Origin: a bacterium
GTDB taxonomy: Bacteria > Patescibacteriota > Minisyncoccia > Phycocordibacterales > UBA5272
NCBI GenBank assembly: GCA_023267535.1
Contig: JAHFNC010000004.1
Coordinates: forward strand, 3,757 to 67,756
Length of the DNA stretch: 64,000 nt
Reading direction: 5' to 3'
The notes under the pieces are model-generated. The model was not told the DNA's origin, ran no database searches, and was given only the letters and a program-made list of their open reading frames with translations. Position 1 is the first letter of the stretch, and each line of letters begins with the position of its first letter. This document shows, piece by piece, positions 3,715-62,168 of the stretch. A program made the position numbers and the translations under genes.

Positions 3715-3717
3715 TTT

Positions 3718-4839
3718 ATGAAAAAAGAAAACTGGGAAATAAAAAGTTTTGAAGAATGTCTTGAAAAAGTTGTTTATACAAACAAAATTCAAAGAAAAGA
3801 TTTTCTTGATAATGGAAAGCATCCAGTAATTTCACAAGAGAAAGATTTTGTTAATGGGTACTGGGATAATTCTAAAGATTTATTTAAGGTTAGAAAACCA
3901 GTTATAATTTTTGGTGATCATACACAAGTCTTAAAATATGTAGATTTTGATTTTGTTCTTGGTGCTGATGGTGTAAAAATACTTCAGCCTACAAGTGAGC
4001 TAGAACCAAGATTTTTTTACTATTATTTACAAAACATAAATATTGGTAGTTTAGGATACGCAAGACATTACAGATTATTAAAAGAGAGTGAAGTAGAATT
4101 TCCAAAGTCTCTTTTAGAACAGCAACGCATAGTGTCAGTTTTAGATAAAGCATTCGTTGATATATCTAAAGCAAAAGATATTGCTGAACAGAATCTTAAA
4201 AATGCAAAAGAACTTTTTGAAAGTTATTTACAGAGTATGTTTACAAATAAAGGAGATGATTGGGAAGAGAAAACATTAGGCGGTATTGCTTTTGTAAAAA
4301 GTGGAGGAACTCCTTCAAGGTCTAAAAAAGAATACTGGACAGGTAAAATAGCTTGGTATTCGTCGGGTGAATTAAATAATTTGTACACCACAACGCCAGA
4401 AAGATATATTAACGATTTAGCAATTAGTAACTCAAATGCAAAAATCTTTCCAAAAGGTTCTCTTTTAATAGGTATGTATGATACTGCGGCTCTAAAAATG
4501 TCTATATTAGACAGAGACGGTTCTTTTAATCAAGCTATTGCAGGTGTAAAACCTAATGACAAAATTGACTTAACTTTTATTTTACACTCTATCAACTCTA
4601 TCAAACCAGAATTACTTAATTTAAGACGTGGTGTTCGTCAGAAAAATCTAAGTCTTGAAAAGATAAAAAGTATCCCTACCTATGTTCCTCCACTTCAAGT
4701 ACAGAAGAATGTTGTTTCTAAATTAGGAGAACTTTCCACTGAAACAAAAAAACTTGAAGCAATCTATGAACAAAAATTAAATGACTTAGAAGAACTTAAG
4801 AAAAGTATTCTTCAAAAGGTATTTAACGGCGAACTATAA
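3718..4839 (+). CDS. hsdS: Type I restriction-modification system, specificity subunit S
   Basis: 373 aa. Two target-recognition halves, each followed by a conserved helical spacer ('LLEQQRIVSVLDKAF...' and 'LQVQKNVVSKLGEL...'). Confidence 0.9.
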   Translation: MKKENWEIKSFEECLEKVVYTNKIQRKDFLDNGKHPVISQEKDFVNGYWDNSKDLFKVRKPVIIFGDHTQVLKYVDFDFVLGADGVKILQPTSELEPRFFYYYLQNINIGSLGYARHYRLLKESEVEFPKSLLEQQRIVSVLDKAFVDISKAKDIAEQNLKNAKELFESYLQSMFTNKGDDWEEKTLGGIAFVKSGGTPSRSKKEYWTGKIAWYSSGELNNLYTTTPERYINDLAISNSNAKIFPKGSLLIGMYDTAALKMSILDRDGSFNQAIAGVKPNDKIDLTFILHSINSIKPELLNLRRGVRQKNLSLEKIKSIPTYVPPLQVQKNVVSKLGELSTETKKLEAIYEQKLNDLEELKKSILQKVFNGEL

Positions 4840-4860
4840 AAGTGCTATAATGTCAAGATT

Positions 4861-7182
4861 ATGAACGAATCTGAAACAAGGGCAGAGCTAATTGATCCAA
4901 AGCTAAAAGCTTGTGGTTGGGGTGTTGTTGAAGGATCTAAAATACTCCGTGAATACAATATTACTGCTGGTAAAATCCAAACTGGAGGTATAAGAGGAAA
5001 GCTACTTACTGCTGATTATGTATTGGTCTACAAAGGCATAAAATTGGCTGTGGTTGAGGCAAAGAGTGCAAATATAGGAGTTGGTGAGGGTGTTGCACAA
5101 GCCAAGCAATATGCAGAGAAACTAAAAATAGAAACAACCTATTCTACAAACGGAAAAGAGATATACAGTATCTGTATGAAAACTGGTGTTGAGGGTTTGG
5201 TTTCTGGTTATCTCTCACCTGATGAACTTTGGAACAAAACTTTTTCGGTTCAAAATGAATGGAGAGAGAAATTTAGTTCTATTCCTTTTGAAGATAAGAG
5301 TGGCTCTTGGCAATTACGTTATTATCAAGAAATAGCAGTAAAGAATGTTCTTGAATATGTTGCAAATGATAGGGACCGCATTTTGCTCACCTTAGCTACT
5401 GGTACAGGTAAAACAGCTATCGCTTTTCAGATAGTATGGAAACTATTTCAGACAAGATGGAATTTAAAACGTGACGGTTCTCGTCGTCCTCGTATTTTAT
5501 TTTTAGCAGATAGAAACATATTAGCCGACCAAGCATACAACTCTTTTTCTTCATTTCCAGAAGATGCTTTGGTGCGTATTAATCCTAAAGAAATAAGTAA
5601 GAAAGGAAGTGTGCCTACTAATGGGTCTATTTTCTTTACTATCTTTCAAACCTTTATGAGTGGTAAAGATGCCGAGGGAAACCCTGCACCATACTTCGGA
5701 GAATATCCATCTGATTACTTTGATTTTATTATTATAGACGAATGTCATCGTGGCGGTGCAAACGATGAAGGAAACTGGAGAGGTATCTTGGAATATTTTT
5801 CTCCTGCTGTGCAATTAGGTTTAACAGCTACCCCAAAGCGTAAAGATAATGTCGATACATATAAATATTTTGGTGAGCCAGTATATATTTATTCTCTTAA
5901 AGAGGGTATTAATGATGGATTTCTTACACCTTTTAAGGTTAAGCGTATTAAGACAACATTAGACGATTATATTTATACAAGTGATGACCAAATCATCGAA
6001 GGGGAAATCGAGGAAGGAAAACTTTATACCGAACCTGATTTTAATAAGATAATTGAAATTAAAGCGAGAGAAGAAAAGCGTGTGAAGGTATTTATGGACG
6101 AAGCAAATCAAAATGAAAAAGCTATTGTCTTTTGTGCTACTCAAGATCATGCGGCTGCGGTTCGTGATTTAATTAATCAATACAAGAAAAGTGCTGATCC
6201 AAATTATTGTGTCCGTGTTACAGCAAATGATGGAGAGATAGGCGAACAATTTTTAAGAGAATTCCAAGATAACGAAAAAACTATACCAACTATTTTAACG
6301 ACATCACAGAAACTTTCAACTGGAGTAGATGCTAGAAATATACGTAACATTGTACTCATGCGACCAGTGAACTCTATGATTGAATTTAAGCAAATTGTAG
6401 GGCGTGGTACACGTTTATTTGATGGTAAGGAATTCTTTACTATTTATGACTTTGTGGATGCTTATCACCATTTTGCGGATCCTGAATGGGATGGAGAACC
6501 GATCAGTCCAGTAGATGATGAACCTACGGAACCTAAACCACCAAAAGGGGTAGAGGGTGAACCACCTTTTCCTCCAGAACCACCAACAGAACCAAATAAG
6601 AAACTTAAGATTAAATTACGAGATGGAAAAGAACGTGAAATACAACACATGATAGCAACTTCTTTTTGGGGTGCAGACGGTAAACCTATTTCTGTGGAAG
6701 AGTTTTTACAAAACCTGTTTGGGACACTGCCTAGTCTTTTTAAGGGTGAAGAAGAGTTGCGAGAGATATGGAGTAATCCAATAACAAGAAAAAGTTTGTT
6801 AGAAAAACTAGACGAGGCTGGGTATGGAAAAGACGAACTAACTACATTACAGAAATTAATTGACGCTGAAAATAGTGATCTTTTTGATGTGTTGGAATAT
6901 GTATTTAATAGTGACGTTAAACCGATACCAAGAGAGATAAGAGTAGAAACATCACAGGAAACTATTTTTGAATCCCTTAATGATAAACAAAAAGAATTTA
7001 TTGAATTTGTGTTGAGTAAATATATTGAAACAGGTGTAGAAGAATTAGACCAAGAGAAACTACCAATACTTCTTACTAATAAATATCAGTCGCTAGAAGA
7101 TGCAAAAGATACACTAGGTGATATTGATTTGATTCGTTCGATTTTCTTCAAATTCCAAGAGAAACTATACGCAAAAGTATAA
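4861..7182 (+). CDS. hsdR: Type I restriction enzyme, R (helicase/endonuclease) subunit, EcoEI-R-like
   Basis: 773 aa. N-terminal 'SETRAELIDPKL..GW' region. SF2 motifs 'LATGTGKT', 'IIIDECHRG', 'LGLTATP', 'QIVGRGTR'. Pro-rich linker, then a C-terminal domain resembling the EcoEI R C-terminus ('DLFDVLEYVF...'). Confidence 0.93.
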   Translation: MNESETRAELIDPKLKACGWGVVEGSKILREYNITAGKIQTGGIRGKLLTADYVLVYKGIKLAVVEAKSANIGVGEGVAQAKQYAEKLKIETTYSTNGKEIYSICMKTGVEGLVSGYLSPDELWNKTFSVQNEWREKFSSIPFEDKSGSWQLRYYQEIAVKNVLEYVANDRDRILLTLATGTGKTAIAFQIVWKLFQTRWNLKRDGSRRPRILFLADRNILADQAYNSFSSFPEDALVRINPKEISKKGSVPTNGSIFFTIFQTFMSGKDAEGNPAPYFGEYPSDYFDFIIIDECHRGGANDEGNWRGILEYFSPAVQLGLTATPKRKDNVDTYKYFGEPVYIYSLKEGINDGFLTPFKVKRIKTTLDDYIYTSDDQIIEGEIEEGKLYTEPDFNKIIEIKAREEKRVKVFMDEANQNEKAIVFCATQDHAAAVRDLINQYKKSADPNYCVRVTANDGEIGEQFLREFQDNEKTIPTILTTSQKLSTGVDARNIRNIVLMRPVNSMIEFKQIVGRGTRLFDGKEFFTIYDFVDAYHHFADPEWDGEPISPVDDEPTEPKPPKGVEGEPPFPPEPPTEPNKKLKIKLRDGKEREIQHMIATSFWGADGKPISVEEFLQNLFGTLPSLFKGEEELREIWSNPITRKSLLEKLDEAGYGKDELTTLQKLIDAENSDLFDVLEYVFNSDVKPIPREIRVETSQETIFESLNDKQKEFIEFVLSKYIETGVEELDQEKLPILLTNKYQSLEDAKDTLGDIDLIRSIFFKFQEKLYAKV

Positions 7183-12011: not shown

Positions 12012-13034
12012 ATGAACAAGCAAGCTGTGCTCTCTATTGTTCCAAATATTCCAAACGCTGAAGACGAAGATCCTGGCGTCGCCCTATTAATATCGGCCGA
12101 CCAGCTTCTTTTTGATCCAAATCAACCAAGAAAGAGATACACGAAAAAAGGTCTTGAGAAATTGGCTAAAAGCATTCAAGACCAAGGTTTGCAACAGCCG
12201 GTGGTCGTTACCTTTGCTTATCGTAAGAAAGGCATAGATTACTATTACATCAAGTTCGGCGAAAGGCGTTATCGCGCTCATATTTTGCTTGGCTACAAAA
12301 ACGTTCCTTGTCTTGTGAAGAAGGGGACCTACGACGGCAAGCTTGATGTGGAACGAGTGCTTGCGCAGACTTCGGAAAATAATTTGCGCGAACCACATTC
12401 GCACAGCGAGATGATTAACGTCCTTCGTTTGGTCGTTGAAGACGAACGAGAAAAGTCTGATGGCGTGATTGGCTACATCGGCAAAGCTCAAGAAAGATTT
12501 GCCACAGCTCTTGGCTATACCGCTGAGGCCACCAGAAGGTATCACGTTTTGGCTAATCTTCATTCGGAGTTAGTTGAGATGTTGGATATTGAAGACGAAG
12601 AAGAAGGGGACGAACGAGAAAAGCTTAACTTCAGCGTTGCTCTTTCTTTGGCTAGAGCACCAAAAGATGCTCAGCTTGGGATTCTTGAAAGGTCAAAGCC
12701 TCACTTTGAAAAGTCTCACAATCACGGCATTGCTTTTGTTTCTGAACAAGCAAGGTCTGTTCGCGAGAGTCGTGGTGAAAAGATAGTCGGCAGGAAGCCG
12801 AGCGAATCAATTGACCTTGTCAGGAAATTTCTAACCTTCACCAACAATCGCCACGATTTGGTCTTTGGGCAAATGAAGCCAGCTGAGATAAAAGCCATTT
12901 TGGCTTCGGCGAGCGTGACCACCGTTGATGTTTTGCTTAACGCAGTCATTATGGCCGCAACAAACCTGAAATCACTTCAGGCACTGATTCAAGAAAGGAG
13001 AGATTACAATTATAGAGAATTCAGAAAGAAATAA
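12012..13034 (+). CDS. ParB/Srx N-terminal-domain protein (ParB-like nuclease domain), orphan
   Basis: 'LLFDPNQPRK', 'IQDQGLQQPVVV' and 'KFGERRYRAH' (GERRxRA arginine patch). RBS GGAGGGAG lies upstream of ATG 12012, so the track start at 11955 is probably too early. No parA nearby. Confidence 0.75.
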   Translation: MNKQAVLSIVPNIPNAEDEDPGVALLISADQLLFDPNQPRKRYTKKGLEKLAKSIQDQGLQQPVVVTFAYRKKGIDYYYIKFGERRYRAHILLGYKNVPCLVKKGTYDGKLDVERVLAQTSENNLREPHSHSEMINVLRLVVEDEREKSDGVIGYIGKAQERFATALGYTAEATRRYHVLANLHSELVEMLDIEDEEEGDEREKLNFSVALSLARAPKDAQLGILERSKPHFEKSHNHGIAFVSEQARSVRESRGEKIVGRKPSESIDLVRKFLTFTNNRHDLVFGQMKPAEIKAILASASVTTVDVLLNAVIMAATNLKSLQALIQERRDYNYREFRKK

Positions 13035-26442: not shown

Positions 26443-26826
26443 ATGCCACATTACTTACTCATTGAAGTTGATGACTCTAAGACAAATCTAAAATATGTCG
26501 TTGATGAGAATGTTTTAGCTACTCATTCTCACGATTTTGGTTTGAAACATTTGGAGTCACACGCCATGAGTAAGATCGCTTCTTCGAAATTCTTAGACGG
26601 AGTGTTTTATATTCTAGAATACATTTCTCTTTACGAAAGAATTCCTACGGAATTTGTTTTATGTTCACCGCGCTATTCATCTTGGATAAAAAATTTAATC
26701 GAGGAAGCCTCTTATACACAGTTTTACACAAACAAAATTCCAGTGTGTGTTAAAATAGACGGCAATAGGGAGGCTTCTTCTAACTATGCAAGACATAAAA
26801 AAACCACATTCTCGTTCAAAGTCTGA
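26443..26826 (+). CDS. hypothetical protein (127 aa)
   Basis: ORF only. Its 3' end overlaps the next ORF by 41 nt. Confidence 0.35.
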   Translation: MPHYLLIEVDDSKTNLKYVVDENVLATHSHDFGLKHLESHAMSKIASSKFLDGVFYILEYISLYERIPTEFVLCSPRYSSWIKNLIEEASYTQFYTNKIPVCVKIDGNREASSNYARHKKTTFSFKV

Positions 26827-28123
26827 CAACGATATAAATTCGCGTGTTGAGCAATTTGAAAAAAGATCTTATCTTCTTAAAAAAGAAAGAGAAGAAGAAA
26901 GAAGCGATGAGAAATACAATAAAATTCCTATAAAAATCAACAAAAAAAACAGAAGTGACTCAATTCACATTCGTCGAAAGTCAGGTACAAGTTTCGGAAC
27001 ATGGGTATTTATTGGTTTTGTTTTACTTTTGGTTACAATTGTTTGTTTACTTTCTTTTGTCTTTAATTCAGCAACAATTACCTACAAACCAAAATATTCA
27101 GATATAGATTTAAATAATCAAAATAAGAATTTCACTTTTAATTTACAAGGAACAACAGGCGCTGTTCACTTTGTAATTGCCACTACGACAATAACCAAAA
27201 CTCAAGTTCTTCCACTGTCTGAATCAAAAGCAGTACAAAGCAAAGCTTCTGGAAAAATAATTGTTTACAATAAATTTGACTCTTCTCCACAAAAATTAAT
27301 TAAAAATACTCGTTTCGAATCGTCCGCCGGAAAAATCTACAGAATAAATCAGTCAATCACTATCCCAGGTAAAAATGGAGATACTCCAGGAAGTGTGGAA
27401 GTTACTGTTTATGCAGATAGTTATGGCTCTGATTATAATTCTGACCCAACTGATTTCACTATTCCCGGATTCAAGGGCTCGCCACGATACACCGGATTCT
27501 TTGCAAGGTCAGACGGAGCATTAACAGGAGGTGCTTCTGGTAACGCTTCTATTGCTTCACAGACAGATATAAATTCTGCGAAGGATGAATTAGCTTTAGA
27601 ATTGACCCAAGAGTTAAAAACTGCACTTAAGAAGACAACAATGAATGGATATTTAGGTTTGTATGACAACATTCAAGTAAAGTTTGCTGACAATGAAGCC
27701 GATTTGAAAGTTGGTAACGCTTCAACTTATCAAGTGACGGCGACTGGTATTCTTATGTTTGTAGACAAAAAGGAATTAGCCACCGAAATTGCCAAAACAT
27801 TACCAACAGAAAGATACACCAATGAAGATGTAAGATTGGATAATTCTGACAAGTTGAAGTTTTCATTAAAGGATTCGGCTGATATTGAGAGCACAAATAG
27901 TATCGACGTTTTGGTTGAAGGTAATCCGCGAATTGTTTGGACAACCAATGTTGAAATATTAAAGCAGAAATTAATTGGTCATAATAAAGCTGATTTTACA
28001 AAGGTTATGCATGATACTTCATCTATTGATAGCGCTGAAATAAACTTCTCTCCATTGTGGCTTAGTACGTTCCCTGGTGCAGAAAATAAAATAAAGTTCG
28101 TTGAACAAATCGGAAAGAACTAA
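26786..28123 (+). CDS. hypothetical membrane-anchored exported protein
   Basis: Basic N-terminus, one TM helix ('WVFIGFVLLLVTIVCLLSFVF'), then a long beta-rich ectodomain. Confidence 0.55.
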   Translation: MQDIKKPHSRSKSDNDINSRVEQFEKRSYLLKKEREEERSDEKYNKIPIKINKKNRSDSIHIRRKSGTSFGTWVFIGFVLLLVTIVCLLSFVFNSATITYKPKYSDIDLNNQNKNFTFNLQGTTGAVHFVIATTTITKTQVLPLSESKAVQSKASGKIIVYNKFDSSPQKLIKNTRFESSAGKIYRINQSITIPGKNGDTPGSVEVTVYADSYGSDYNSDPTDFTIPGFKGSPRYTGFFARSDGALTGGASGNASIASQTDINSAKDELALELTQELKTALKKTTMNGYLGLYDNIQVKFADNEADLKVGNASTYQVTATGILMFVDKKELATEIAKTLPTERYTNEDVRLDNSDKLKFSLKDSADIESTNSIDVLVEGNPRIVWTTNVEILKQKLIGHNKADFTKVMHDTSSIDSAEINFSPLWLSTFPGAENKIKFVEQIGKN

Positions 28124-32384: not shown

Positions 32385-32963
32385 ATGAAAAAAGAAGAAA
32401 ATAAAAATGCCACAGAAATGGAGGAAATGACAGATGATGTAGAATTTGAAGAAGTGAATGAAGAAGGAGAAGTAGATACAAAAACTACGATTAAAAAATT
32501 AAGAATAAAAGTAAAAGAATTAGAAGCCGAAAAAAGAGAATACTTACTAGGTTGGCAAAGAGCTCAAGCTGATTATGCTAATCTAAAAAAAGAACATATT
32601 GGAGATATGGCAAATAGAACTAGACTAGCCAACAAAAATCTCGTTGAAGATTTAATTCCAGTTCTTGATTCTTATTACATGGCTAGAAATAATGCGGAAG
32701 CTTGGAATAAAGTAGACTCGGGATGGAGAAGCGGTATTGAATATATTTTTAATCATTTCTTATCAGTGTTAGAAAAAATAGGACTCTCATCTTTCGGAGA
32801 AGTTGGAGAAAAATTTAATCCGATTATCCACGAAAATATTGAAATTGTATCTACCGAAGATTCTTCAAAAAATGATATAATAGAGAGTATATTAGCAAAA
32901 GGATACAAAATGGGAGATACAATAATACGTCCGGCGAGAGTAAAAGTATTTCATTCTGCTTAA
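32385..32963 (+). CDS. grpE: nucleotide exchange factor GrpE
   Basis: Coiled-coil N-terminus, 'RAQADYANLKK', C-terminal beta domain. Confidence 0.95.
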   Translation: MKKEENKNATEMEEMTDDVEFEEVNEEGEVDTKTTIKKLRIKVKELEAEKREYLLGWQRAQADYANLKKEHIGDMANRTRLANKNLVEDLIPVLDSYYMARNNAEAWNKVDSGWRSGIEYIFNHFLSVLEKIGLSSFGEVGEKFNPIIHENIEIVSTEDSSKNDIIESILAKGYKMGDTIIRPARVKVFHSA

Positions 32964-33003: not shown

Positions 33004-34872
33004 ATGTCAAAGATTATTGGTATTGATTTGGGAACAACAAACTGTGCTGTGGCCATCATAGAAGGAGGACAGCCGAAAATAATAGAAAATGTTGAGGGTA
33101 ATAGAACTACCCCTTCTGTTGTTTCTGTAAATAAAAATGGTGAAAGATCTGTGGGTCTTATCGCTAAGCGTCAAGCCGTAACCAACGCCAAAGATACTAT
33201 TTACGGAGTAAAGCGCTTCATGGGACATTCTTTTAAAGATAAGGAGGTTCAAAATGACATTCCTAATGTAGCGTATGGTATTAAGGAAGGAGATAACGGC
33301 GGAACATTAATCACACTTTCCGGGAAAGATTATCGTCCAGAAGAAATTTCAGCAATGATTTTACAAAAAATAAAAGCTGATGTAGAGGCTAAACTTGGAG
33401 AAAAAATCACTGAAGCGGTGATAACTGTTCCTGCATATTTTAATGATACACAACGTCAAGCAACAGTAGACGCCGGAAAAATTGCCGGCCTTGATGTTAA
33501 AAGAATTATTCCTGAACCGACAGCAGCCGCTCTTGCATATGGTTTTAACTCACAAAAAAATGAAAAGCTGGCTGTCTTTGATTTTGGTGGAGGCACATTT
33601 GATATTTCTATTTTAGAAGTAGGGGATGGGGTGGTTGAAGTAAAATCAGTTGATGGTGACTCTCACCTTGGAGGACGTGACATTGACCAAAAGTTTGTTC
33701 AATTTATCGCATCTGAATTTAAAAAAGAATCAGGTATTGATATTACAGCTGACCCATTAGCACTTCAGAGATTAGATGAGGCCGCAGAAAAAGCAAAACA
33801 CGAACTTTCAACTCAATTAGAAACCGAAATAAATCTTCCGTTTATTACATCAGACGCTAATGGTCCAAAGCACTTGGTTATTAAGGTAACAAGAGCGTCA
33901 CTTGAAAATATTGCAAAAGAATTTATAGATAGAGCTTTAGTTATTACACAAAGAGCGTTGGACAATTCTCCATTTAAAAAAGAAGAAATACATGAAATTA
34001 TTATGGTTGGCGGACAAACCAGAATGCCAATGATTGTTGAAGCTGTTAAAAATCTTTTTGGAAAAGAACCAAACCGAACAATTAACCCAGATGAAGTGGT
34101 AGCGCTCGGCGCCGCTGTTCAAGCTGGAGTTCTTCAAGGTGATGTAAAGGATGTTTTACTTTTGGATGTCATTCCGCTTTCACTTGGGATTGAAACCATG
34201 GGTGGAGTTTCTACAAAACTTGTTGAGAAAAACATGACTATACCAACATCAAAGTCACAAATATTTTCAACCGCTGCTGATAATCAGACTTCAGTTGAAA
34301 TTCATATCGTTCAAGGAGAGCGTCCGATGGCTACAGATAACAAATCACTAGGTAGATTTATTCTAGACGGTATTCCACCTGCGCCTCGTGGTATGCCTCA
34401 AGTGGAAGTAACTTTTGATGTTGACGCTAATGGCATACTACAAGTAAAAGCAAAAGATAAAACCAGTGGAAAAGAACAATCAATTCGCATAGAAGCCTCA
34501 TCTGGTTTAACTGATGAGGATATCAAGAAGATGCAACAAGATGCTGAAGCTCATGCCGAAGAAGATAAAAAGAAAAGGGAGTTGGCTGAAGAGAAAAATA
34601 TGTCAGATGCTTTAGTTCATACCGCCGAGAAAGCACTTAAAGAGGCTGAGGGTAAAATAGGAGATGATGTAAAGAAAGAAATTGAAGATAAAATAAATGC
34701 TTTAAGAACTGCTCGTAATGGTGAAGATGTATCTTTGATTAAATCTTCGGCCGAGGAATTATCTGCTTCTATGATGAAAATAGGTGAAGCTATGCAAAAA
34801 GCACAATCGGAATCAAATACTACTGAAACAAACACAGAAAATACAAACCCTACTGACGAAAATAAAGGATAA
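33004..34872 (+). CDS. dnaK: chaperone DnaK (Hsp70)
   Basis: '[13 protein letters not shown]', 'DLGGGTFD' and 'VGGQTRMP'. Confidence 0.98.
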
Positions 34873-34910: not shown

Positions 34911-35000
34911 CAACTCCTCGGCTCGGAAATGTGAAAGATTACTTTTCCACTTCTCTCGCTCTACGTCGTTAATAAAACAACTGAATAATCTAAAAACAAA

Positions 35001-35031
35001 AACAGCCGTCGCAATTCCTGCGACGGCTGTT
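35001..35031 (-). terminator. Rho-independent terminator of the minus-strand RNB-like gene
   Basis: 12-bp stem AACAGCCGTCGC / GCGACGGCTGTT. The T-run is on the minus strand only. Confidence 0.7.
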
Positions 35032-35035
35032 AAAT

Positions 35036-35818
35036 TTAAGAGCATTGATAAACTTCGTTCACAGCCTTTTTCATTTCTTCTTCTGTAACGATTGGTCTTT
35101 CTTCATTTAGAAAGTTTTGTAAATTACTGACGTTTATGAGAGACAAAACATCCCTCAACGGCCTGTTGAACCTTCCGTATTCAATAGGAGAAATCAGTAG
35201 CGTATTTTTTCTCTTAAGGAAATCAAAAAACGGAATTCCGTTTACCCTACAAAAGTTACGACAAGCATCATTAAACAAATCACACAGCGAATGGACCAGT
35301 TGTTGATCATACATAAAATCTGATCCATCATGATAACGGAAACACCAGTGAAAGGACCTCCTAGCCAGAGTATGTTTATGTTTTTTGTAAATCAAATCAA
35401 TCAAATTTTTTGCTTTGTTGCAGATTTCTTCCTCTTGATGATCGCCGTGCTGTATCCAACTGACAGTGGCAGAAGAAGGAAAAACATTTTCTGAAAAAAC
35501 TTCGCCAGTATAACTGACAGAGAATTTAACTGCGATAACAGGAGTGGAAACCCCTTCTCGTAAACCAAAATACCTTTTGATATCTCTGTTAAAAAGATTT
35601 ATGCTTTGTGGCATTTTTGAGTAAGGAAGATTTTTTAAACACATGTCTACAACTTCGGTGTTTAAAAAACGAAGTGGAGGAATAATACCCACCACAACTA
35701 AAACCCATCCAGTCTCATTTTCTTCAACAAAAAATCCGTCTTCCCTGACCATAGCACCAACCGGGTCAAGGGCTAAGCAATGAAAAACTTCACTACTCTC
35801 ACTTATCAAGGAGCTCAT
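35036..35818 (-). CDS. degenerate RNB (RNase II/R catalytic domain)-like protein
   Basis: 260 aa. 'LALDPVGAMVREDGFFVEENETGWVLVVVGI' compares with RNB 'IDp..a.D.DDA..ve...gw.l.V.IADV'. 'ISPIEYGRFNRPLRD' compares with 'TSPIRRY.DL'. Catalytic Asp and Arg positions are replaced. Confidence 0.4.
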   Translation of the reverse strand: MSSLISESSEVFHCLALDPVGAMVREDGFFVEENETGWVLVVVGIIPPLRFLNTEVVDMCLKNLPYSKMPQSINLFNRDIKRYFGLREGVSTPVIAVKFSVSYTGEVFSENVFPSSATVSWIQHGDHQEEEICNKAKNLIDLIYKKHKHTLARRSFHWCFRYHDGSDFMYDQQLVHSLCDLFNDACRNFCRVNGIPFFDFLKRKNTLLISPIEYGRFNRPLRDVLSLINVSNLQNFLNEERPIVTEEEMKKAVNEVYQCS

Positions 35819-35908
35819 TTTTCCTCCACTTTTTAATTATGGAAAACTGTTAAGTATACTATCACGATTCTTTATAAAATCAATTATTATTGTTATAATA
35901 GAGACCAT

Positions 35909-36202
35909 ATGAATTTAACCGCCTTAGCTAATAGTTTTACAACAAATGTAATCAGTGCCATCGCTTTTTTATTAATGACTGGTTCAATAACGGCATTTTT
36001 TTACGGAACTTTTGTATTTCTTGTAAATCAACAAAAGGGAGATAGCGCAAAAAGTAATGATGGAAAACAATTTATGTTATGGGGATTAATTTCACTTTTT
36101 GTTATGTTTTCTGTTTGGGGGATAATAACAGCTCTACAAGTCAATCTTGGGTTTGGCACAAGCACCAACATACAAATTCCTGCCATGAACGTTGGTCAAT
36201 AA
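35909..36202 (+). CDS. small two-TM protein, TrbC/VirB2-type T4SS-pilin-like
   Basis: 97 aa. Two hydrophobic helices separated by a short polar loop. Assigned by pattern only. Confidence 0.4.
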   Translation: MNLTALANSFTTNVISAIAFLLMTGSITAFFYGTFVFLVNQQKGDSAKSNDGKQFMLWGLISLFVMFSVWGIITALQVNLGFGTSTNIQIPAMNVGQ

Positions 36203-36266: not shown

Positions 36267-37352
36267 ATGACAAAGAACTATTACGATGTTTTAGGAATCG
36301 AAAAATCAGCTTCAAAAGATGAAATTAAGAAGGCTTTTTATAAGCTAGCTTCAAAATATCACCCTGATAAAAAAGGAGGAGACGAGGCTAAATTCAAAGA
36401 AGTAAACGAAGCCTATCAAATTTTATCCGATGAAAAGAAGAGGAAAGAATACGATACCTATGGACAAACATTTTCTGGCTCTGGAGCAAGAGCGGGGGGA
36501 TTTGGTTTTGAGGGATTTGACGCTTCTGACTTTTCAAATATGCAATTTGATTTTGGAGACTTAGGAGATATCTTTGGTGATATGTTCGGAATGGGTGGAT
36601 CACCATTTGGTGGGCCTCGTCAAAAAAGAGGGCGCGATATTTCTCTTGAGGTAGACATTTCTTTTTCCGAATCAATTTTTGGAACACAAAGAGATGTGCT
36701 GATAAGCAAAGTTGGACAATGTAAAACCTGCAAAGGAACAGGGGCAAAACACGGAACCGAAACAACAACTTGTGAGATTTGTAACGGTAAAGGAAAAGTT
36801 CACGACACTAAGAAAACTTTTATGGGAACATTCCAAACTGTAAAGACTTGCAGTAACTGTAATGGTAAAGGAAAAGTTGCCAAAGAGAAATGTCACGATT
36901 GTCGTGGAGCTGGAGTTCATACTATGAAAGAAGATATTCACATAGAAGTGCCGGCTGGAATATCAAACGGAGAAATGATTAGATTGTCACAAATGGGAGA
37001 AGCTATCTCAGGAGGACTGTCTGGTGATTTATATGTCAGAGTGAATGTCGCGTCTCATAAAGAATGGAAAAGGGAGGGAGCTGATTTAATTATTAAGCAT
37101 AGTATTAAATTAACTGATGCTTTACTTGGAGCAAAGCACACGATACACGGATTAGATGGCGACATAAATATAGAAATTGCACCTGGCGCTTCCGCTGGAG
37201 AAATTTTACGAGTAAGGGGACGAGGCGTTCCTTCTGTTCACGATAAAATAAAAAGAGGAGACGCTCTTGTAAAACTAGACATCATTATGCCAAAGAAGTT
37301 AACCAAAAAAGCGATGAAGTTAGTGGAGGAAATGAAAGAGGAGGGGCTATAA
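36267..37352 (+). CDS. dnaJ: chaperone DnaJ
   Basis: J domain 'KYHPDKK', G/F region and four CxxCxGxG repeats. Confidence 0.97.
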   Translation: MTKNYYDVLGIEKSASKDEIKKAFYKLASKYHPDKKGGDEAKFKEVNEAYQILSDEKKRKEYDTYGQTFSGSGARAGGFGFEGFDASDFSNMQFDFGDLGDIFGDMFGMGGSPFGGPRQKRGRDISLEVDISFSESIFGTQRDVLISKVGQCKTCKGTGAKHGTETTTCEICNGKGKVHDTKKTFMGTFQTVKTCSNCNGKGKVAKEKCHDCRGAGVHTMKEDIHIEVPAGISNGEMIRLSQMGEAISGGLSGDLYVRVNVASHKEWKREGADLIIKHSIKLTDALLGAKHTIHGLDGDINIEIAPGASAGEILRVRGRGVPSVHDKIKRGDALVKLDIIMPKKLTKKAMKLVEEMKEEGL

Positions 37353-38552: not shown

Positions 38553-38810
38553 ATGAATGAACTTCAAAAAAATGGAAATCGTTTACCTTCTTGTGCCGGA
38601 GTCTTTCTAGCCAAGGACCAAAACGGAAATACTTTCGAATTGGAAGTTGTCTGGAGACCAAACGGTATCCCGAAACAAAAAGGTCTCTTCGTTCTCTTTC
38701 CAGGGAAAACCAGTAACGACGACCAATTTGTTCCAGTCACTGGTACTGAGTATGACTTCCTGGCAAAAATAGGAGACATAAGAACGGATTACTTTGAAGC
38801 TTACGGTTGA
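38553..38810 (+). CDS. hypothetical protein (85 aa)
   Basis: ORF with its own terminator. Confidence 0.4.
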   Translation: MNELQKNGNRLPSCAGVFLAKDQNGNTFELEVVWRPNGIPKQKGLFVLFPGKTSNDDQFVPVTGTEYDFLAKIGDIRTDYFEAYG

Positions 38811-55214: not shown

Positions 55215-55875
55215 AATTTTGTAATCCCTTTTGAAAGGATGTTAATTCTTCTTCTGAGTAAGTAATCTTATTTTTAAATTGTGGGTTTAGAATTTTAGTT
55301 GAAACAAATTTTTGTAAATAATATTTTTTTGCACCCCTTATTTCTTCCCCTATTTCTAAAACATCAGATTCCGATACTAAAGATTTAATAAGAGTTGTTC
55401 TAAATTCATAATCTATAGGCGATGACAAAAGTAAATCAATACTTTGTCGTATTTTCTCGATATCGACCGGACGAGAAACAGTTTGGCTATATTTTGAAAG
55501 TGGAGATTTTATATCCATAGCAATATAATCAACAACACCTTCACTTATAGCTTTTTTAAGAACACTCGGATTTGTACCGTTTGAATCAAGCTTTACCAAA
55601 AATCCTAATTCTTTTATTTTTTTAATAAATGAAATTAAATCATTGTGCATTGTCGGTTCACCGCCGGTTATAACCACACCATCTAACAACCCAACTCTCG
55701 TTTTTAAAAAATCCATTACTTCTTCTTCGTTTATTCTAGTTTCCACTGTCTCATCGACCAATTCTGGATTATGACAATAAGGACAACGGAAGTTACATCC
55801 AATGGTGTATAAAATACAAGCTGTTTTTCCTGGATAATCAATTAGAGTAAATTTTTCTAATCCTCCGAATATCAT
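55189..55875 (-). CDS. nrdG: anaerobic ribonucleotide reductase activating enzyme (radical SAM)
   Basis: 'CNFRCPYCHN' and 'VVITGGEP'. ATGA overlap with nrdD. Confidence 0.92.
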   Translation of the reverse strand: MIFGGLEKFTLIDYPGKTACILYTIGCNFRCPYCHNPELVDETVETRINEEEVMDFLKTRVGLLDGVVITGGEPTMHNDLISFIKKIKELGFLVKLDSNGTNPSVLKKAISEGVVDYIAMDIKSPLSKYSQTVSRPVDIEKIRQSIDLLLSSPIDYEFRTTLIKSLVSESDVLEIGEEIRGAKKYYLQKFVSTKILNPQFKNKITYSEEELTSFQKGLQNYVKYCGIR

Positions 55876-58037
55876 TTTTGAATTACTAATGGAGACTCTA
55901 TTAATTTTGACTCAATAATATTGTGCTCATACATTTCTCGGCAATCAAATTCAGCTCGTTTACCTTCATTCCATTGACTCACTGGACGAATATAACCCAC
56001 TATTCTTGAATAAACTTCGCATTCATTATTGCAAGTTGGACATAAATGTTTTTCACCATTTATATACCCATGAGAAGGACAGACGCTGAAAGTTGGGGTT
56101 AGCGTAAAGTATGGCAATTTAAAATTCTCACAAATCTTTTTGACAAGCACAGGAACAGATGATGGGTCAGCAACTCTTTCTCCTAAGAAAAGATGCATAA
56201 CTGTTCCACCGGTGTATTTTGTTTGCAAACCATCTTGAATTTCTAAAGTTTCAAAAATATCTTTTGAAAAATTAACTGGTAAATGAGAAGAATTAGTGTA
56301 ATAAGGATTGGCTTTTTTATTATTATAATCGTCTTCATTAGCAACAAGTATGTCAGGGAAAGCTTTTTTGTCATTTAATGCAAAACGATAGGCAGTCCCC
56401 TCTCCTGGTGTTGCTTCTAGATTAAATAAATTATCTGTCTCTTTTTGATATTGCACTAATCTTTCACGCATAAAATCCAATACGTCTGAAGCAAAAGCTC
56501 TCCCTTTTACAGTACCAATATTTTCTCCAAGTAAATTAAGAGAAGCTTCGTTGGTTCCAATCAAGCCAATGGTAGAGAAATGATTTTTCCAATATTCACC
56601 ATAGGACTCTTTTATTTTTCTTAAATAGAATTTTGTATATGGATATAGATTGGCGTTAGTTAATCTTTCTAACATTTTTCTTTTAATCTCCAAGCTTTCT
56701 TTGGCAATATCCATTTGCAAAGCCAGCGAGTCGTAAAATTCTTTTTTAGCTTTTCTTATGTCTTTCGGAAATTTCTTGCTAGCTTTGTAAGCAAGACGTG
56801 GAAGATTTATGGTTACCACACCAACTGAGCCAGTTAAAGCGTTTGCACCAAACAATCCTCCTCCACGCCTATCTAATTCAGCGACGTCTAATCTCAAACG
56901 ACAACACATTGATCTTGTGTCTTCCGGCTTCATATCTGAACTAACAAAATTACTAAAATACGGAATACCATATTTAGCAGTTATTTCCCAAAGACCTTTT
57001 AGGTTAGGATTATTCCATTCAAAATCTTTGGTGACATTCACTGTTGGAATTGGAAAAGTAAAGACTCTACCTGAGGCGTCCCCTTCATACATAACTTCAA
57101 AGAGAGCTTTGTTAAACATGTTCATCTCTCTTTGAAATTCTTTGTATGTTTCAACTTGAGGTTTACCGCCGATAATTACCTTTGTGTCTTTAAAATTTGC
57201 CGAGGGTGTTAAATCAAGAGTGATGTTTGAAAATGGAGTTTGAAATCCAACTCTGGTTGGTACATTCATATTAAAGATGAATTCTTGAAGCCCTTGCTTA
57301 ACCTCATCAAAGGTAAGTCCATCATAACGAATAAACGGTGCAAGAAGTGTATCAAAATTAGAAAAAGCAATGGCGCCAGCTGCCTCACCTTGAAGCGTGT
57401 ACATAAAGTTGACTGCTTGCCCCAAAGCGGTGCGAAAATGCTTAGGAGGGGCAGATTCTACCTTACCAACTACCCCCTTGAACCCTTCAGTAAGTAAATC
57501 CATTAAATCCCAACCAACACAGTAAACAGAAATAAGACCTAAATCGTGAATATGTATATCTGTTTTCTCATAGGCATCTCTTATTTCCTTGGGATATATC
57601 TTATTTAACCAGTAAGTCTTACTAATTTCACCAAAAACATAGTTATTTAACCCTTGCAAGGAATATTCCATGTTACTGTTTTCTTTCACTTGCCAATCAC
57701 TTCTATCCAAATAATTATCAACCATGCCAAGTGACATAGAAGTAGCAAAAGCGCGAAGTTCAGCATGTTGCTTTCTGTATAGAATATAGGCTTTAGCTGT
57801 TTCTTTGTATTGAGAACGCATCAAAACTAACTCCACCACATCTTGAATATCTTCAACAGTTGGCTCGTTTCCGACTATATTTTTGTCCACTATAGAAATA
57901 ACCTTTTTTGATAGTATTTCTGCCTCCTTCGCATCAAATTCTCCAGTAGCTTTACCTGCTTTGACTATTGCTATGGTAATTTTTTTATAGTCAAAGGCTA
58001 CTTTGGCACCATTTCTTTTGATAATGAATTTTGGCAT
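55872..58037 (-). CDS. nrdD: anaerobic ribonucleoside-triphosphate reductase (class III)
   Basis: N-terminal ATP-cone, C-terminal Zn site 'CPSHG...CPTC' and glycyl-radical motif 'RIVGYIRP'. Confidence 0.96.
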   Translation of the reverse strand: MPKFIIKRNGAKVAFDYKKITIAIVKAGKATGEFDAKEAEILSKKVISIVDKNIVGNEPTVEDIQDVVELVLMRSQYKETAKAYILYRKQHAELRAFATSMSLGMVDNYLDRSDWQVKENSNMEYSLQGLNNYVFGEISKTYWLNKIYPKEIRDAYEKTDIHIHDLGLISVYCVGWDLMDLLTEGFKGVVGKVESAPPKHFRTALGQAVNFMYTLQGEAAGAIAFSNFDTLLAPFIRYDGLTFDEVKQGLQEFIFNMNVPTRVGFQTPFSNITLDLTPSANFKDTKVIIGGKPQVETYKEFQREMNMFNKALFEVMYEGDASGRVFTFPIPTVNVTKDFEWNNPNLKGLWEITAKYGIPYFSNFVSSDMKPEDTRSMCCRLRLDVAELDRRGGGLFGANALTGSVGVVTINLPRLAYKASKKFPKDIRKAKKEFYDSLALQMDIAKESLEIKRKMLERLTNANLYPYTKFYLRKIKESYGEYWKNHFSTIGLIGTNEASLNLLGENIGTVKGRAFASDVLDFMRERLVQYQKETDNLFNLEATPGEGTAYRFALNDKKAFPDILVANEDDYNNKKANPYYTNSSHLPVNFSKDIFETLEIQDGLQTKYTGGTVMHLFLGERVADPSSVPVLVKKICENFKLPYFTLTPTFSVCPSHGYINGEKHLCPTCNNECEVYSRIVGYIRPVSQWNEGKRAEFDCREMYEHNIIESKLIESPLVIQK

Positions 58038-58913: not shown

Positions 58914-61900
58914 TTATATAATCTCATTAATCAAATCATCTTCAAAAGCAATTATCCCCTTATAACTCTTATCATAATTAGAAACATCTGGAAAATCTAA
59001 GTTTACTATTTTTTTGTATACGGCTTCTATTAATTTCTTTACTCTCTCTATTTCTGCTTCATTTATATCTAATGGTAATTCAATTATTTTTCCTTCATCA
59101 TTTTCTTCTACAAATTGTAGACTTAAATTTTTTACTGAAAACTTGTTGTAAGAAGAGCTGTTTTCTAAAAGAAGTTTATATATAATTAATTGTTGTCGAT
59201 ATTTATGTAATTTTATTTTTGTGTCATCATCTTTTCCTTCCCAAGAGGAAAAAGATTTTCCTGTTTTAAAATCTATAACTTCATAGAAATTATTAACTAC
59301 TCGTAAAAAATCTATCTTACCCGTCAAATGAGCACTGTTAATAATTACTCCTTCACTCTTCATATCAACTTCTATTTTGTCATCGTCTTTAAAAGATTTA
59401 ATTTTTTCATCATAATATTTTTTAAGAACAATTTCTCCCCTATCTTTCATAAACTTATAATCAGAAATATTTAATCTGGAACGCGATAATATAAAATCAA
59501 ATTTAGATAAAATGTGTGAGAGTTTTGGTTTCTCACCAGCGTTGTATTTTGGGTACACAATCATTTCTTCTATCGCTTTGTGTATTGCTGAGCCATAAGC
59601 ACCTGAGGCGTTCATCGGCTGTGGAAAATGAAGTAAATTTTGTTCAACAAAAAATATTGGTCCACCATTTTTAATATCTAAAAAATTATTCAAATGCGTT
59701 ACTGGCATTTTATAGTTCTCTACAAGTTTGGATAACATTGCCCATTCGTCTTCTTTTATTTTATTTACTCCTATTCCTAAAATACTTTCGTGGTCTTCTT
59801 CGCTTATTTCTAAAGACTTAGCATCAACCTCTTTAATTAAATCTTGCGGTAAGTAACGCAACATCTCTTCATGACCACTTATGTGTAGTGTATGTTTAGC
59901 ACGAGTAATAGCCACGAAAAACAATCTAATAAAATCATCTTCTTCGTCTCCAGCTGGATTTATTAATTGAGAAAGAGCTGATGGAATCGGTGCTTTGTTG
60001 ACCATGTTTCCCCTTGTCCAAGGTTTATCATGAGCATTTATAATAAACACTTCTTCAAACTCAAGACCCTTAGCAGCATGAGCGGTCATTAATTGTATTG
60101 AAAATTTATTTCTAGTAAATAATGATTCACTGATAAGAGGAATGTTATTATCTTTATGCATCTTAACAAATTGCGTCACATCGGAAGCTGTAATTGTCTC
60201 TCCTTTCTTCCACTCACGCAGAGCGTCAATAAAAGTCTTAAGTGAAGCCAAAAAATAAACATAAGTAGCTGGAGTGTTTTTTAATTTTTCTTTTGAGAAA
60301 TAAAATTCCTTGAAATTACTTTTCTCTATAAACTTTTCAATCAAATTTTCAAGTGGCAAACTTTTAGCCTCCACAGATAAATCAGTAAGAAGTTCATAAA
60401 TTTTGTGTAATTTTTCATCCTCTGATATTTTGAGAGCTTCTATCCAAGATATATTTTTTGTCTTAGCGTTTACAGCAACATTAAAAATTTCTTTATGACT
60501 TAAATTTAAAAATTTATAAGATAAAATCTCTGGTAACAGATAATCTTTATTATTTTCGTAATTTAAAACCGAAGACACATATTCACAAACAATAATGAGT
60601 TGTCTTATATGTTCTTCATCAAAAACATTCGCCTTCTTAATGTATTCATAAGGAATAGACAATTTATCAAGATACGGAAGTATAGCTTGTAAATCTTTAT
60701 GATTACGAGAAAGAATGGCTATTTCTTTTGGATCTACTCCATCATCCAATACTTTTTTTATTTTTCTAGAAACATCAGAATATTCTTCTACCTTAGAATT
60801 ATATTTAATGATTTCTATTTTCCCGTTTGGTAGATTTTTATTTTCTGATTTTAGTTCTTTAACAATATCCTCAAATCTATTTTCCAATCTAATTTTCCCT
60901 TTGGTGATTATTTGTCTGGCAAAAGAAACAACATCTTTAGTAGAGCGATAATTTTTATCAAGCACTATTGTCTGAACATCTTTATAAGTCTTTTCTCTAA
61001 ATTCCATAATATGAGACACTTCGGCTCCTTGGAATTTATAAATTGCTTGATCGTCATCTCCCACAACACAAACATTGGGATGCCCCTCATGAATCGGGCT
61101 TGAAGTGATGGCTTTAACTAAACTCATCTGAGCAAGATTAGTATCTTGAAATTCATCAATCATAATATATTGGTATTGTTCTTCAAGTTCGTTTCTTAAA
61201 ACATTTTTATTACGCAATATATGAGCCACTTCAATAATGGTGTCATCGTAATCATAAAGACCCAGCTCATGCATTTTGTTTTCATACAATTCGTAAATTT
61301 CAGCTACTGCTAAAATTTTATCGTAATTGTAACTCTCTTTTAAAATTGGAGTACTTTCATCAACCGCTAAATATTTCTTCTTGAAATCCGCTATCGGCTC
61401 AGTCTTTCCAATTACAAAAGATTCTTCGACGGCATTTTTTAAGGCTAGAGAAATAAATTTACTGGTTGTGGTCTTTAATTTATCTAGTGAAGAAATAATG
61501 TTATTAAAAACTTCTAACTTCTTTACATTTAATCTTTCTACTGGCCATAAAGCAAAAACTTCATTTATATCTTTATAATCTTCTTTGATAGAAGTGACTA
61601 TCGTTTTATATTCTTCCGGAGTGTATCCACCGGATTTTATGTGTTTTATTCTGTCTGTCACATCTTTTAAATAAGCAAACCCAAGTTCTGGATGTTTAGC
61701 ACTTAGCGGATGTTTATGTAGAAGGGACTTAAAAATTTCTGTAATTATTTCGGCACGAGTAATATCATTTGCTTGAGAAAAATTTGTAGCGTTGTAAAAA
61801 TATTCTGGGTATCGTCCAATAACGTAATTACAAAAAGCGTGGAAGGTAAAAATATTAACCCTAAAGGCATCTTCCTTTATCAAAGAAGATAATCTTTCTC

Positions 61901-62168
61901 GCATATTAATAGCTCCGTTTTCTGTAAAGGTTAAGCACAAAATGTTTGATGGTGTAGCCAAGCCTAATTTCAAGATGTTAGCGACACGAAGTGATAAAAG
62001 CTCTGTCTTTCCACTCCCCGGCCCAGCGATTACCATTACAGGACCATCAGTTGTATCTACAGCAAGCTTCTGCTCTTTATTTAATTTCTGATAACGAGAT
62101 TCAAATTCTGCATTCTTTGATTTTGATTCATTATTTATTCTCATACTTAGAAAGTGCCTCCTTAGCAT
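58914..62168 (-). CDS. UvrD/PcrA-type helicase fused to a C-terminal RecB-family nuclease (AddA-like)
   Basis: 'IAGPGSGKTE', 'MIDEFQDTN', 'VGDDDQAIYKFQGA' and 'NYRS'. C-terminal 'GKIDF...VIDFKTGK...YRQQLIIYKLL'. The start may be ATG 62144. Confidence 0.88.
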   Translation of the reverse strand: MLRRHFLSMRINNESKSKNAEFESRYQKLNKEQKLAVDTTDGPVMVIAGPGSGKTELLSLRVANILKLGLATPSNILCLTFTENGAINMRERLSSLIKEDAFRVNIFTFHAFCNYVIGRYPEYFYNATNFSQANDITRAEIITEIFKSLLHKHPLSAKHPELGFAYLKDVTDRIKHIKSGGYTPEEYKTIVTSIKEDYKDINEVFALWPVERLNVKKLEVFNNIISSLDKLKTTTSKFISLALKNAVEESFVIGKTEPIADFKKKYLAVDESTPILKESYNYDKILAVAEIYELYENKMHELGLYDYDDTIIEVAHILRNKNVLRNELEEQYQYIMIDEFQDTNLAQMSLVKAITSSPIHEGHPNVCVVGDDDQAIYKFQGAEVSHIMEFREKTYKDVQTIVLDKNYRSTKDVVSFARQIITKGKIRLENRFEDIVKELKSENKNLPNGKIEIIKYNSKVEEYSDVSRKIKKVLDDGVDPKEIAILSRNHKDLQAILPYLDKLSIPYEYIKKANVFDEEHIRQLIIVCEYVSSVLNYENNKDYLLPEILSYKFLNLSHKEIFNVAVNAKTKNISWIEALKISEDEKLHKIYELLTDLSVEAKSLPLENLIEKFIEKSNFKEFYFSKEKLKNTPATYVYFLASLKTFIDALREWKKGETITASDVTQFVKMHKDNNIPLISESLFTRNKFSIQLMTAHAAKGLEFEEVFIINAHDKPWTRGNMVNKAPIPSALSQLINPAGDEEDDFIRLFFVAITRAKHTLHISGHEEMLRYLPQDLIKEVDAKSLEISEEDHESILGIGVNKIKEDEWAMLSKLVENYKMPVTHLNNFLDIKNGGPIFFVEQNLLHFPQPMNASGAYGSAIHKAIEEMIVYPKYNAGEKPKLSHILSKFDFILSRSRLNISDYKFMKDRGEIVLKKYYDEKIKSFKDDDKIEVDMKSEGVIINSAHLTGKIDFLRVVNNFYEVIDFKTGKSFSSWEGKDDDTKIKLHKYRQQLIIYKLLLENSSSYNKFSVKNLSLQFVEENDEGKIIELPLDINEAEIERVKKLIEAVYKKIVNLDFPDVSNYDKSYKGIIAFEDDLINEII

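Follow-up and report, generated by a model that had tools for sequence, protein, structure and literature searches.

A compact RNB-superfamily protein, probably an accessory ribonuclease, encoded between dnaK and dnaJ in a patescibacterial genome

Between dnaK and dnaJ in a 64,000-nucleotide stretch of a patescibacterial genome (contig JAHFNC010000004.1; the whole stretch is called the window here), a gene on the opposite strand encodes a 260-residue protein, which we call mini-RNB. The protein is a member of the RNase II/R (RNB) superfamily by fold and by profile-level homology, and its family, so far unannotated, forms a very compact new branch of that superfamily with a strictly conserved genomic address. 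We read it as an accessory, minimal and probably active RNB ribonuclease, with a probability of roughly 0.55; the catalytic activity, the substrate and the physiological role are what we infer. RNase II, RNase R, Dis3/Rrp44 and Dis3L2 play a central part in the decay of RNA in every domain of life, and RNB enzymes have been studied as large multidomain proteins, whose oligonucleotide-binding (OB)-fold domains deliver RNA to the catalytic channel. A natural RNB core of ~260 residues, devoid of RNA-binding domains and of the wedge described below, would mark the smallest unit of the fold that is functional and would offer a compact scaffold to structural studies and to engineering.

Membership in the superfamily became visible at the level of the family rather than of the single protein. 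On its own, the window protein gave no match in Pfam (none at E ≤ 10), NCBIfam, PHROGs or PADLOC, and its single-sequence matches in the PDB, a designed repeat protein (7ue2, through summed repeats) and a weak BTB match, were rejected as artefacts. A profile built from a 40-sequence family alignment (A1, mean column identity only 26%) retrieved from the PDB E. coli RNase II (E = 0.0024) and RNase R (E = 0.0034), together with Dss1 and an RNase II-family protein of Deinococcus radiodurans. The Pfam RNB model (PF00773) was matched individually by 11 of the 40 members, the best at E = 7.9e-6; its gathering score of 29.3 bits was reached by none of them, the highest score being 25.8 bits over model positions 8-155 of 326. 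Aligning the family with the pair of RNase II and RNase R by hhalign gave a probability of 90.8% and E = 1.2e-6.

The predicted structure agrees with this assignment. While a single-sequence AlphaFold model of the window protein was unusable, with a predicted local distance difference test score (pLDDT) of 33, the AlphaFold2 model built with A1 reached a pLDDT of 87.8 and a predicted template modeling score (pTM) of 0.88. In a Foldseek comparison of this model with the PDB, the top 43 matches were all RNB proteins (among them RNase II, RNase R, Dss1, Rrp44/Dis3, Dis3L2 and Ssd1), with E-values down to 5e-11, after which the scores collapsed. An earlier, sequence-only reading of this DNA had marked out a minus-strand open reading frame of 260 codons splitting grpE-dnaK from dnaJ, with coordinates that proved exact, and had compared its product by eye with the RNB domain. 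That likeness is not coincidental: profile searches, the Pfam matches of individual members and Foldseek all confirm it. The same reading had described a protein shorter than a full RNB domain, lacking cold-shock (CSD) and S1 domains, in a heat-shock locus, and these points hold as well, the open reading frame being conserved in relatives and occupying the same slot in every homologue examined.

The family is rare. When 1.84 billion representatives were scanned exhaustively with phmmer, 50 proteins came back at E ≤ 1e-3, nearly all of them 225-286 residues long and aligned end to end. A word-indexed search, which found only the protein itself, or two proteins when a profile was used, had made it look like an orphan; the exhaustive HMMER scan overturned that status. 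One candidate of 963 residues (P0006) was rejected as a perfect tandem-repeat artefact. The members fall into at least seven deep subfamilies, among them a 'short' type of 220-238 residues, and wherever they carry a name in any source it is 'hypothetical protein'. Named in this way, and scoring too low for the Pfam cut-off, the family escapes standard annotation, so that a dark-matter family of the candidate phyla radiation (CPR) has now been annotated. Our literature search found no work that connects CPR or Patescibacteria with the RNB domain.

An indication of function comes from the residues that are kept. In A1, 13 columns are near-invariant: M1, D18, E26, D27, P47, F182, N183, C186, F217, R222, N229, N232 and L233. 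To relate them to the active site we used RNase II numbering, checked against the translated E. coli gene, and counted conservation over 57 non-redundant family sequences (55 or 56 per column). In motif I, LALDPVGAMVREDGFF aligns with TIDSASTEDMDDALF, in the register LALD18PVGAMV24RE26D27GFF on TID201SASTED207MD209D210ALF. D18 thus faces D201 and is Asp in 53 of 55 sequences, and D27, facing D210, is likewise Asp in 53 of 55. The counterpart of D209 is position 26, which is Glu in 48 and Asp in 4 of the 55 sequences; that one or the other acid occupies it in 52 of 55 suggests selection for a carboxylate. Position 24, the counterpart of D207, is acidic in no member and holds hydrophobic or other residues.

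In the C-terminal half, FNRPLRD (residues 217-223) aligns with the motif IV sequence TSPIR(K/R)Y (TSPIR500KY in RNase II). This places R222, Arg in 52 of 56 sequences, on R500, and N229 (Asn in 55 of 56) on N507. A conserved helix motif, LFNxxCR, carries N183, F182 and C186 (54, 47 and 48 of 56 sequences, respectively), and N183 pairs with N397 of RNase II in a weak alignment. On these alignments, the three Mg-coordinating positions are acidic and the Arg is kept, all of them under strong selection, with only the D207 equivalent lost.

The sequence-only reading had placed motif I correctly and the region of motif III roughly so, the latter off by a few residues. For motif IV it had matched ISPIEYG (residues 209-215) with TSPIRRY, which is eight residues out of register. 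It had also concluded that four catalytic Asp and the Arg were all substituted, but D18, D27 and R222 are kept, the D209 position holds Glu, and V24 marks the only loss. Its proposal of an inactivated pseudo-ribonuclease is unsupported because it rested on this wrong residue mapping; the near-invariance of the acidic triad and the Arg speaks against it.

What has been trimmed can be read from the same alignments. About 230 of the 260 residues align to the RNB domain alone, and no other Pfam domain, and no CSD1, CSD2 or S1 domain, was found. Residues 10-128 map confidently to RNase II 193-317. Since whole-length hhalign misaligned the C-terminal half, we mapped that half segment by segment: local hhalign paired residues 208-243 with RNase II 487-521 and residues 168-196 with 382-410, the latter weakly (E = 0.69) but collinearly. 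Accordingly, the stretch from RNase II 317 to 382, to which F358 belongs, would have lost some 25 residues. The largest gap, of about 65 residues, would lie between 410 and 487, where ~12 mini-RNB residues are left. In all, ~90 residues of the RNB domain are apparently missing, including the counterpart of the tri-helix 'wedge' of RNase R. Of the RNase II RNA-clamp residues, Y253 has only a gap opposite it in the alignment, and F358 falls in a deleted or unalignable region.

Studies of larger RNB enzymes show what such a protein might still do. In RNase R the tri-helix wedge allows the enzyme to unwind duplexes, and its deletion abolishes unwinding while leaving folding, binding of single-stranded RNA (ssRNA) and degradation of ssRNA unaffected; RNase R's RNB domain is active even alone (PMC5714204). 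Both engineered constructs, the RNB domain alone and delta-3H, fold and degrade ssRNA, and mini-RNB resembles the two truncations combined, with the difference that they keep the full DxxxxxDxDD signature, while mini-RNB, known here from its sequence, does not. In RNase II, Mg2+ is coordinated by D201, D209 and D210, and the terminal 3'-OH forms a hydrogen bond with D207 (PMC8097288). D280 of RNase R, the counterpart of D209, is the proposed general base (PMC5714204), and D209N is inactive with RNA binding kept (PMC8943300).

Compared with the 3'->5' exoribonucleases E. coli RNase II (rnb; 2IX0/2IX1/2ID0) and RNase R (rnr; 5XGU), of 644 and 813 residues, mini-RNB has motifs I-IV in collinear order and keeps the equivalents of D201, D209 (as Glu), D210, R500, N397 and N507. 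It differs from them in lacking CSD1, CSD2 and S1, the helix-turn-helix and K-rich regions of RNase R, D207, a clear Y253/F358 clamp, and the ~90 residues that apparently include the tri-helix. The best structural match is the D. radiodurans RNase II-family protein (2R7D, 461-469 residues), which is ~200 residues longer, has additional domains and is only 14-16% identical (family profile E = 1). A precedent for the exchange of Asp for Glu is offered by mitochondrial Dss1 (6F3H), one of the profile and fold matches: active Dss1 enzymes tolerate a conserved Glu inside the signature, which reads DxxxxxELDD (PMC8097288). There the Glu stands at the second acidic position, in mini-RNB at the third, and Dss1, a large protein of several domains, has a helicase as its partner.

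Taken together, the protein is a stand-alone, trimmed RNB core in which the acidic residues at the metal-binding positions (D18, E26 and D27) and the Arg that contacts the phosphate (R222) are kept. It would most likely act as a metal-dependent hydrolytic ribonuclease, with an accessible single-stranded 3' end threading straight into an exposed catalytic cavity, and would have little processivity or unwinding capacity. As D207, the Asp that hydrogen-bonds the terminal 3'-OH, is missing, 3'-end recognition is probably altered. The conserved D...ED/R site would test how much of DxxxxxDxDD catalysis needs.

Several observations weigh against an active enzyme. The strict motif I signature DxxxxxDxDD is not intact: it reads D18-x5-V24-x-E26-D27 in the window protein, no member keeps the second Asp, and Glu mostly stands in for the third. 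The RNA-clamp residues Y253 and F358 have no clear equivalent, there is no OB-fold domain to account for substrate capture, and the mapping of the C-terminal half depends on weak, though collinear, local alignments. The very fast evolution and frequent loss described below would also fit relaxed constraint.

These points bear most directly on the possibility, favored by the sequence-only reading, that the protein is a pseudonuclease or RNA-binding protein which has lost catalysis and retains the acidic cluster for binding a metal or ligand. In its favor are the D207 equivalent that is never acidic, the Glu in place of D209 in 48 of 55 sequences, the missing clamp equivalents, and a rule of thumb by which RNB homologues lacking some of the catalytic Asp are presumed to lack conventional nuclease activity (PMC8097288). 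However, known pseudonucleases lose the Mg-coordinating Asp, whereas here the three corresponding positions and the Arg are among the 13 near-invariant columns of a very fast-evolving family whose members are only ~20-26% identical, and Glu and Asp are the only residues that position 26 shows in all but three sequences. The fungal pseudonucleases Ssd1 and Sts5 (7AM1; PMC8934651, PMC8097288) illustrate the difference. Ssd1 has lost the Mg-coordinating Asp and kept the CSD and S1 domains, whose surfaces it uses for RNA binding; mini-RNB presents the opposite pattern, with the acidic triad and Arg retained and both kinds of domain absent. We regard a pseudonuclease as the main rival to our reading, though a somewhat unlikely one.

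The genomic setting of the family was analyzed next to its sequence. In contig look-ups of divergent members, mini-RNB always lay between dnaJ and dnaK on the strand opposite to both, an arrangement found at P0027 (24% identical to the window protein), P0005, P0008, P0013, P0028 and P0018. A metagenome scan with a subfamily alignment added one further locus (L036) of the same synteny, and all 16 lineages examined had the gene in this slot, in the opposite orientation. A DnaJ-anchored scan of species-representative genomes provided 14 loci in which dnaK adjoins dnaJ, and these were then scanned with the family hidden Markov model. Their DnaJ proteins are 68-73% identical to that of the window, and the loci come from metagenome-assembled genomes labelled Candidatus Nomurabacteria, Parcubacteria or Paceibacterota, with some auto-labelled Saccharibacteria.

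Half of these 14 loci (L014, L016, L017, L019, L021, L023 and L028) contain an intact mini-RNB in the slot, on the opposite strand. One (L026:2886-3218, minus strand) retains only a 111-residue N-terminal remnant, and six (L012, L013, L015, L018, L020 and L022) have none, leaving 21-49 bp between dnaK and dnaJ, or 167 bp in L020. Tandem copies were present in L007 and in L019 (L019:4459-5151 and 5245-5904, minus strand). The second copy of L007 (L007:6888-7598, plus strand) has a canonical-looking ...RDDAF motif, while a copy in L019 (L019_2) is probably decaying, having no ATG and, in place of E26, a Thr. On a neighbor-joining tree of DnaK and DnaJ the absences occur in four separate places, and the gene has been lost at least four times; one shallow clade alone reads 'short x2 / absent / long / long / remnant'. 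No target duplications or repeats were found around the slot, where only a conserved dnaJ promoter-like element turned up; no mobility genes mark it, and neither the window nor the fetched flanks of relatives contain a second RNB gene. Mini-RNB is an accessory gene that occurs only in one Parcubacteria/Nomurabacteria-like clade of ultra-small bacteria, long fixed in the dnaK-dnaJ spacer.

Within this fixed address the gene diverges far faster than its neighbors, duplicates, decays and is repeatedly lost. Over the same genome pairs, the median pairwise identity is 20% for mini-RNB, compared with 67% for GrpE, 79% for DnaJ and 86% for DnaK. Part of this divergence is paralogue sorting among the deep subfamilies, and within a single subfamily the copies of L021 and L028 are still only 29% identical, against 93% for DnaK. 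For the ratio of nonsynonymous to synonymous substitution rates (dN/dS), P0043/P0051 is the one close pair and, with a single substitution between its members, is uninformative; all other pairs are saturated. A gene that keeps to one slot between two of the most conserved genes of bacteria, and yet shows ~20% identity, duplication and repeated loss, is unusual, and candidate explanations are conflict, relaxed constraint and coupling to the chaperone operon.

A conflict gene, that is, a nuclease effector of the anti-phage, abortive-infection or toxin type in a hypervariable hotspot, would be compatible with an active nuclease. Only the evolutionary dynamics suggest such a role: the presence/absence polymorphism among close relatives, the tandem paralogues in L007 and L019, the decaying copies in L026 and L019_2, the seven or more deeply divergent subfamilies in one slot, and a divergence far above that of the flanking genes, as in L021 and L028. 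The window genome, moreover, has an apparent type I restriction-modification (R-M) system and so invests in defense. On the other hand, PADLOC-DB v2 gave no match for the window protein and, among the 40 members, a single match at E = 0.0085 that we consider noise. There was no PHROG match, two pattern scans of viral contigs found no relatives, and a fold search of BFVD returned only full-size RNB proteins of giant viruses. At no locus does the slot contain an antitoxin or sensor partner, and it is free of mobility genes and repeats. A conflict role is in our view decidedly improbable.

A broader version, in which mini-RNB would be the smallest natural RNB nuclease (~230-265 residues, a D...ED site, no OB-fold) and a rapidly diversifying conflict or defense effector, or some other lineage-specific accessory RNase, in a dedicated, hypervariable dnaK-dnaJ slot of Parcubacteria, is unlikely in our estimation and is offered tentatively. 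If true, it would give the RNB superfamily a new functional class, and CPR bacteria would provide a rare case of an 'arms-race' locus.

Mini-RNB has expression signals of its own. Downstream of it, between its stop codon and that of the convergent dnaK, lies an intrinsic terminator, a perfect 13-bp stem with a 5-nt loop (stem and loop at 35031..35001) followed by a U-tract (UUUUUGUUUUU). It folds with -23.7 kcal/mol (z = -5.75), and none of 200 shuffles folds as well. A strong terminator had been noted earlier at this place; it is real, with a stem one base pair longer than the 12 bp then given. Analogous hairpins lie between dnaK and mini-RNB in L019 and L028. Upstream of mini-RNB, a Shine-Dalgarno sequence is accompanied by a promoter-like site that is only a weak consensus match, and such sites are no more numerous in this region than in shuffles.

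A promoter-like element of dnaJ, consisting of GTCAAT... and then an extended -10 TGGTATAAC, lies ~10-60 nt upstream of that gene. It is conserved in L018, L019, L020, L021, L022, L026 and L028, at locus coordinates ~5940-6000 in most, ~3130-3180 in L022 and 3260-3317 in L026. As the element is kept with or without mini-RNB, dnaJ seems to own a promoter even when it abuts dnaK. No CIRCE operator (the HrcA/CIRCE regulon) was matched with up to three mismatches anywhere in the window.

From its position, mini-RNB might be a stress-coupled regulator, co-regulated with dnaJ through the divergent spacer or interfering with dnaK by convergent transcription, which would process or degrade chaperone or heat-shock transcripts. 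The position and orientation are invariant in all 16 lineages, and the gene turns a dnaK-dnaJ junction of 21-49 bp into two transcription units split by a shared hairpin. Yet the absence of CIRCE from the window, the dnaJ promoter-like element that persists where the gene is missing, and the half of the related species that do without mini-RNB all argue against regulation of this kind. Fast evolution is not expected for the regulator of a highly conserved operon, and the conserved synteny may be merely historical in small, rarely rearranged genomes. We consider this reading very improbable.

The idea of a spurious open reading frame or decaying pseudogene, which finds some backing in clearly decaying copies (the 111-residue remnant in L026; L019_2 with no ATG and a mutated E26 position), is effectively refuted for the window copy by its Shine-Dalgarno sequence and terminator, by about 50 full-length homologues with conserved motifs, by an alignment that supports a confident fold, and by the length of the frame itself. 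At a local G+C (GC) content of ~36%, ~7% of random codons are stops, from which we calculate a chance of ~1e-8 for an open frame of 260 codons; the GC by codon position (0.45/0.33/0.33) is coding-like. The open reading frame is a real gene. The features of the locus are collected in Table 1.

Table 1. Features of the mini-RNB gene and its surroundings (window coordinates; residue equivalents refer to E. coli RNase II)
Feature	Coordinates	Strand	Remarks
mini-RNB gene	35036..35818	-	260 aa; ATG start; stop codon included in coordinates
RNB motif I equivalent, aa 16-29 (ALDPVGAMVREDGF)	35732..35773	-	D18 = D201; V24 = D207 (lost); E26 = D209; D27 = D210
Conserved helix motif LFNxxCR, aa 181-187	35258..35278	-	N183 aligns with N397 in the EEAMIAAN helix
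RNB motif IV equivalent, aa 217-233 (FNRPLRDVLSLINVSNL)	35120..35170	-	aligned by hmmsearch and hhalign to WTSPIRKYGDMINHRLL
Shine-Dalgarno sequence GGAGG	35823..35827	-	4 nt upstream of the mini-RNB ATG; read from sequence
Promoter-like site GTGATA-18-CATAAT of mini-RNB	35836..35865	-	weak consensus match only (9/12)
Intrinsic terminator of mini-RNB	34991..35031	-	between the convergent dnaK and mini-RNB stop codons
dnaJ promoter-like element, window form TGTTATAAT	35871-35899	+	
grpE	32385..32963	+	upstream of dnaK
dnaK	33004..34872	+	PF00012; convergent with mini-RNB; conserved flank
97-aa small membrane/hydrophobic ORF	35909..36202	+	between mini-RNB and dnaJ; weakly T4SS-pilin-like
dnaJ	36267..37352	+	PF00226, PF01556, PF00684; divergent from mini-RNB; conserved flank

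The small open reading frame (ORF) of 97 residues in the table matched PF18895 (T4SS_pilin) below the cut-off (E = 1.3e-4) and the Mbov_0395 pilin-like family at E = 0.015. It was found at none of the related loci, is specific to the window genome, and is probably not part of the mini-RNB unit.

Elsewhere in the window, an apparent type I R-M cluster occupies 1184-7182 on the plus strand and includes a 773-residue ORF (4861-7182) with ResIII, EcoEI_R_C and HSDR_N domains (HsdR). The gene of a ParB_N-domain protein (12012-13034, plus strand), overlapped by an antisense ORF of 158 residues, has a GC content at third codon positions (GC3) of 0.44, compared with 0.16-0.33 in the other genes of the window, and is possibly foreign DNA. 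Two plus-strand ORFs are without a Pfam match: one of 445 residues (26786-28123), flanked by alaS and infA in a stretch whose other genes are housekeeping ones, and one of 85 residues (38553-38810). Finally, the minus strand encodes an anaerobic ribonucleotide reductase NrdD with an ATP-cone (55872-58037) and an AddA-like helicase-nuclease with UvrD and PD-(D/E)XK domains (58914-62168), both of which are ordinary and fit an anaerobic CPR lifestyle.

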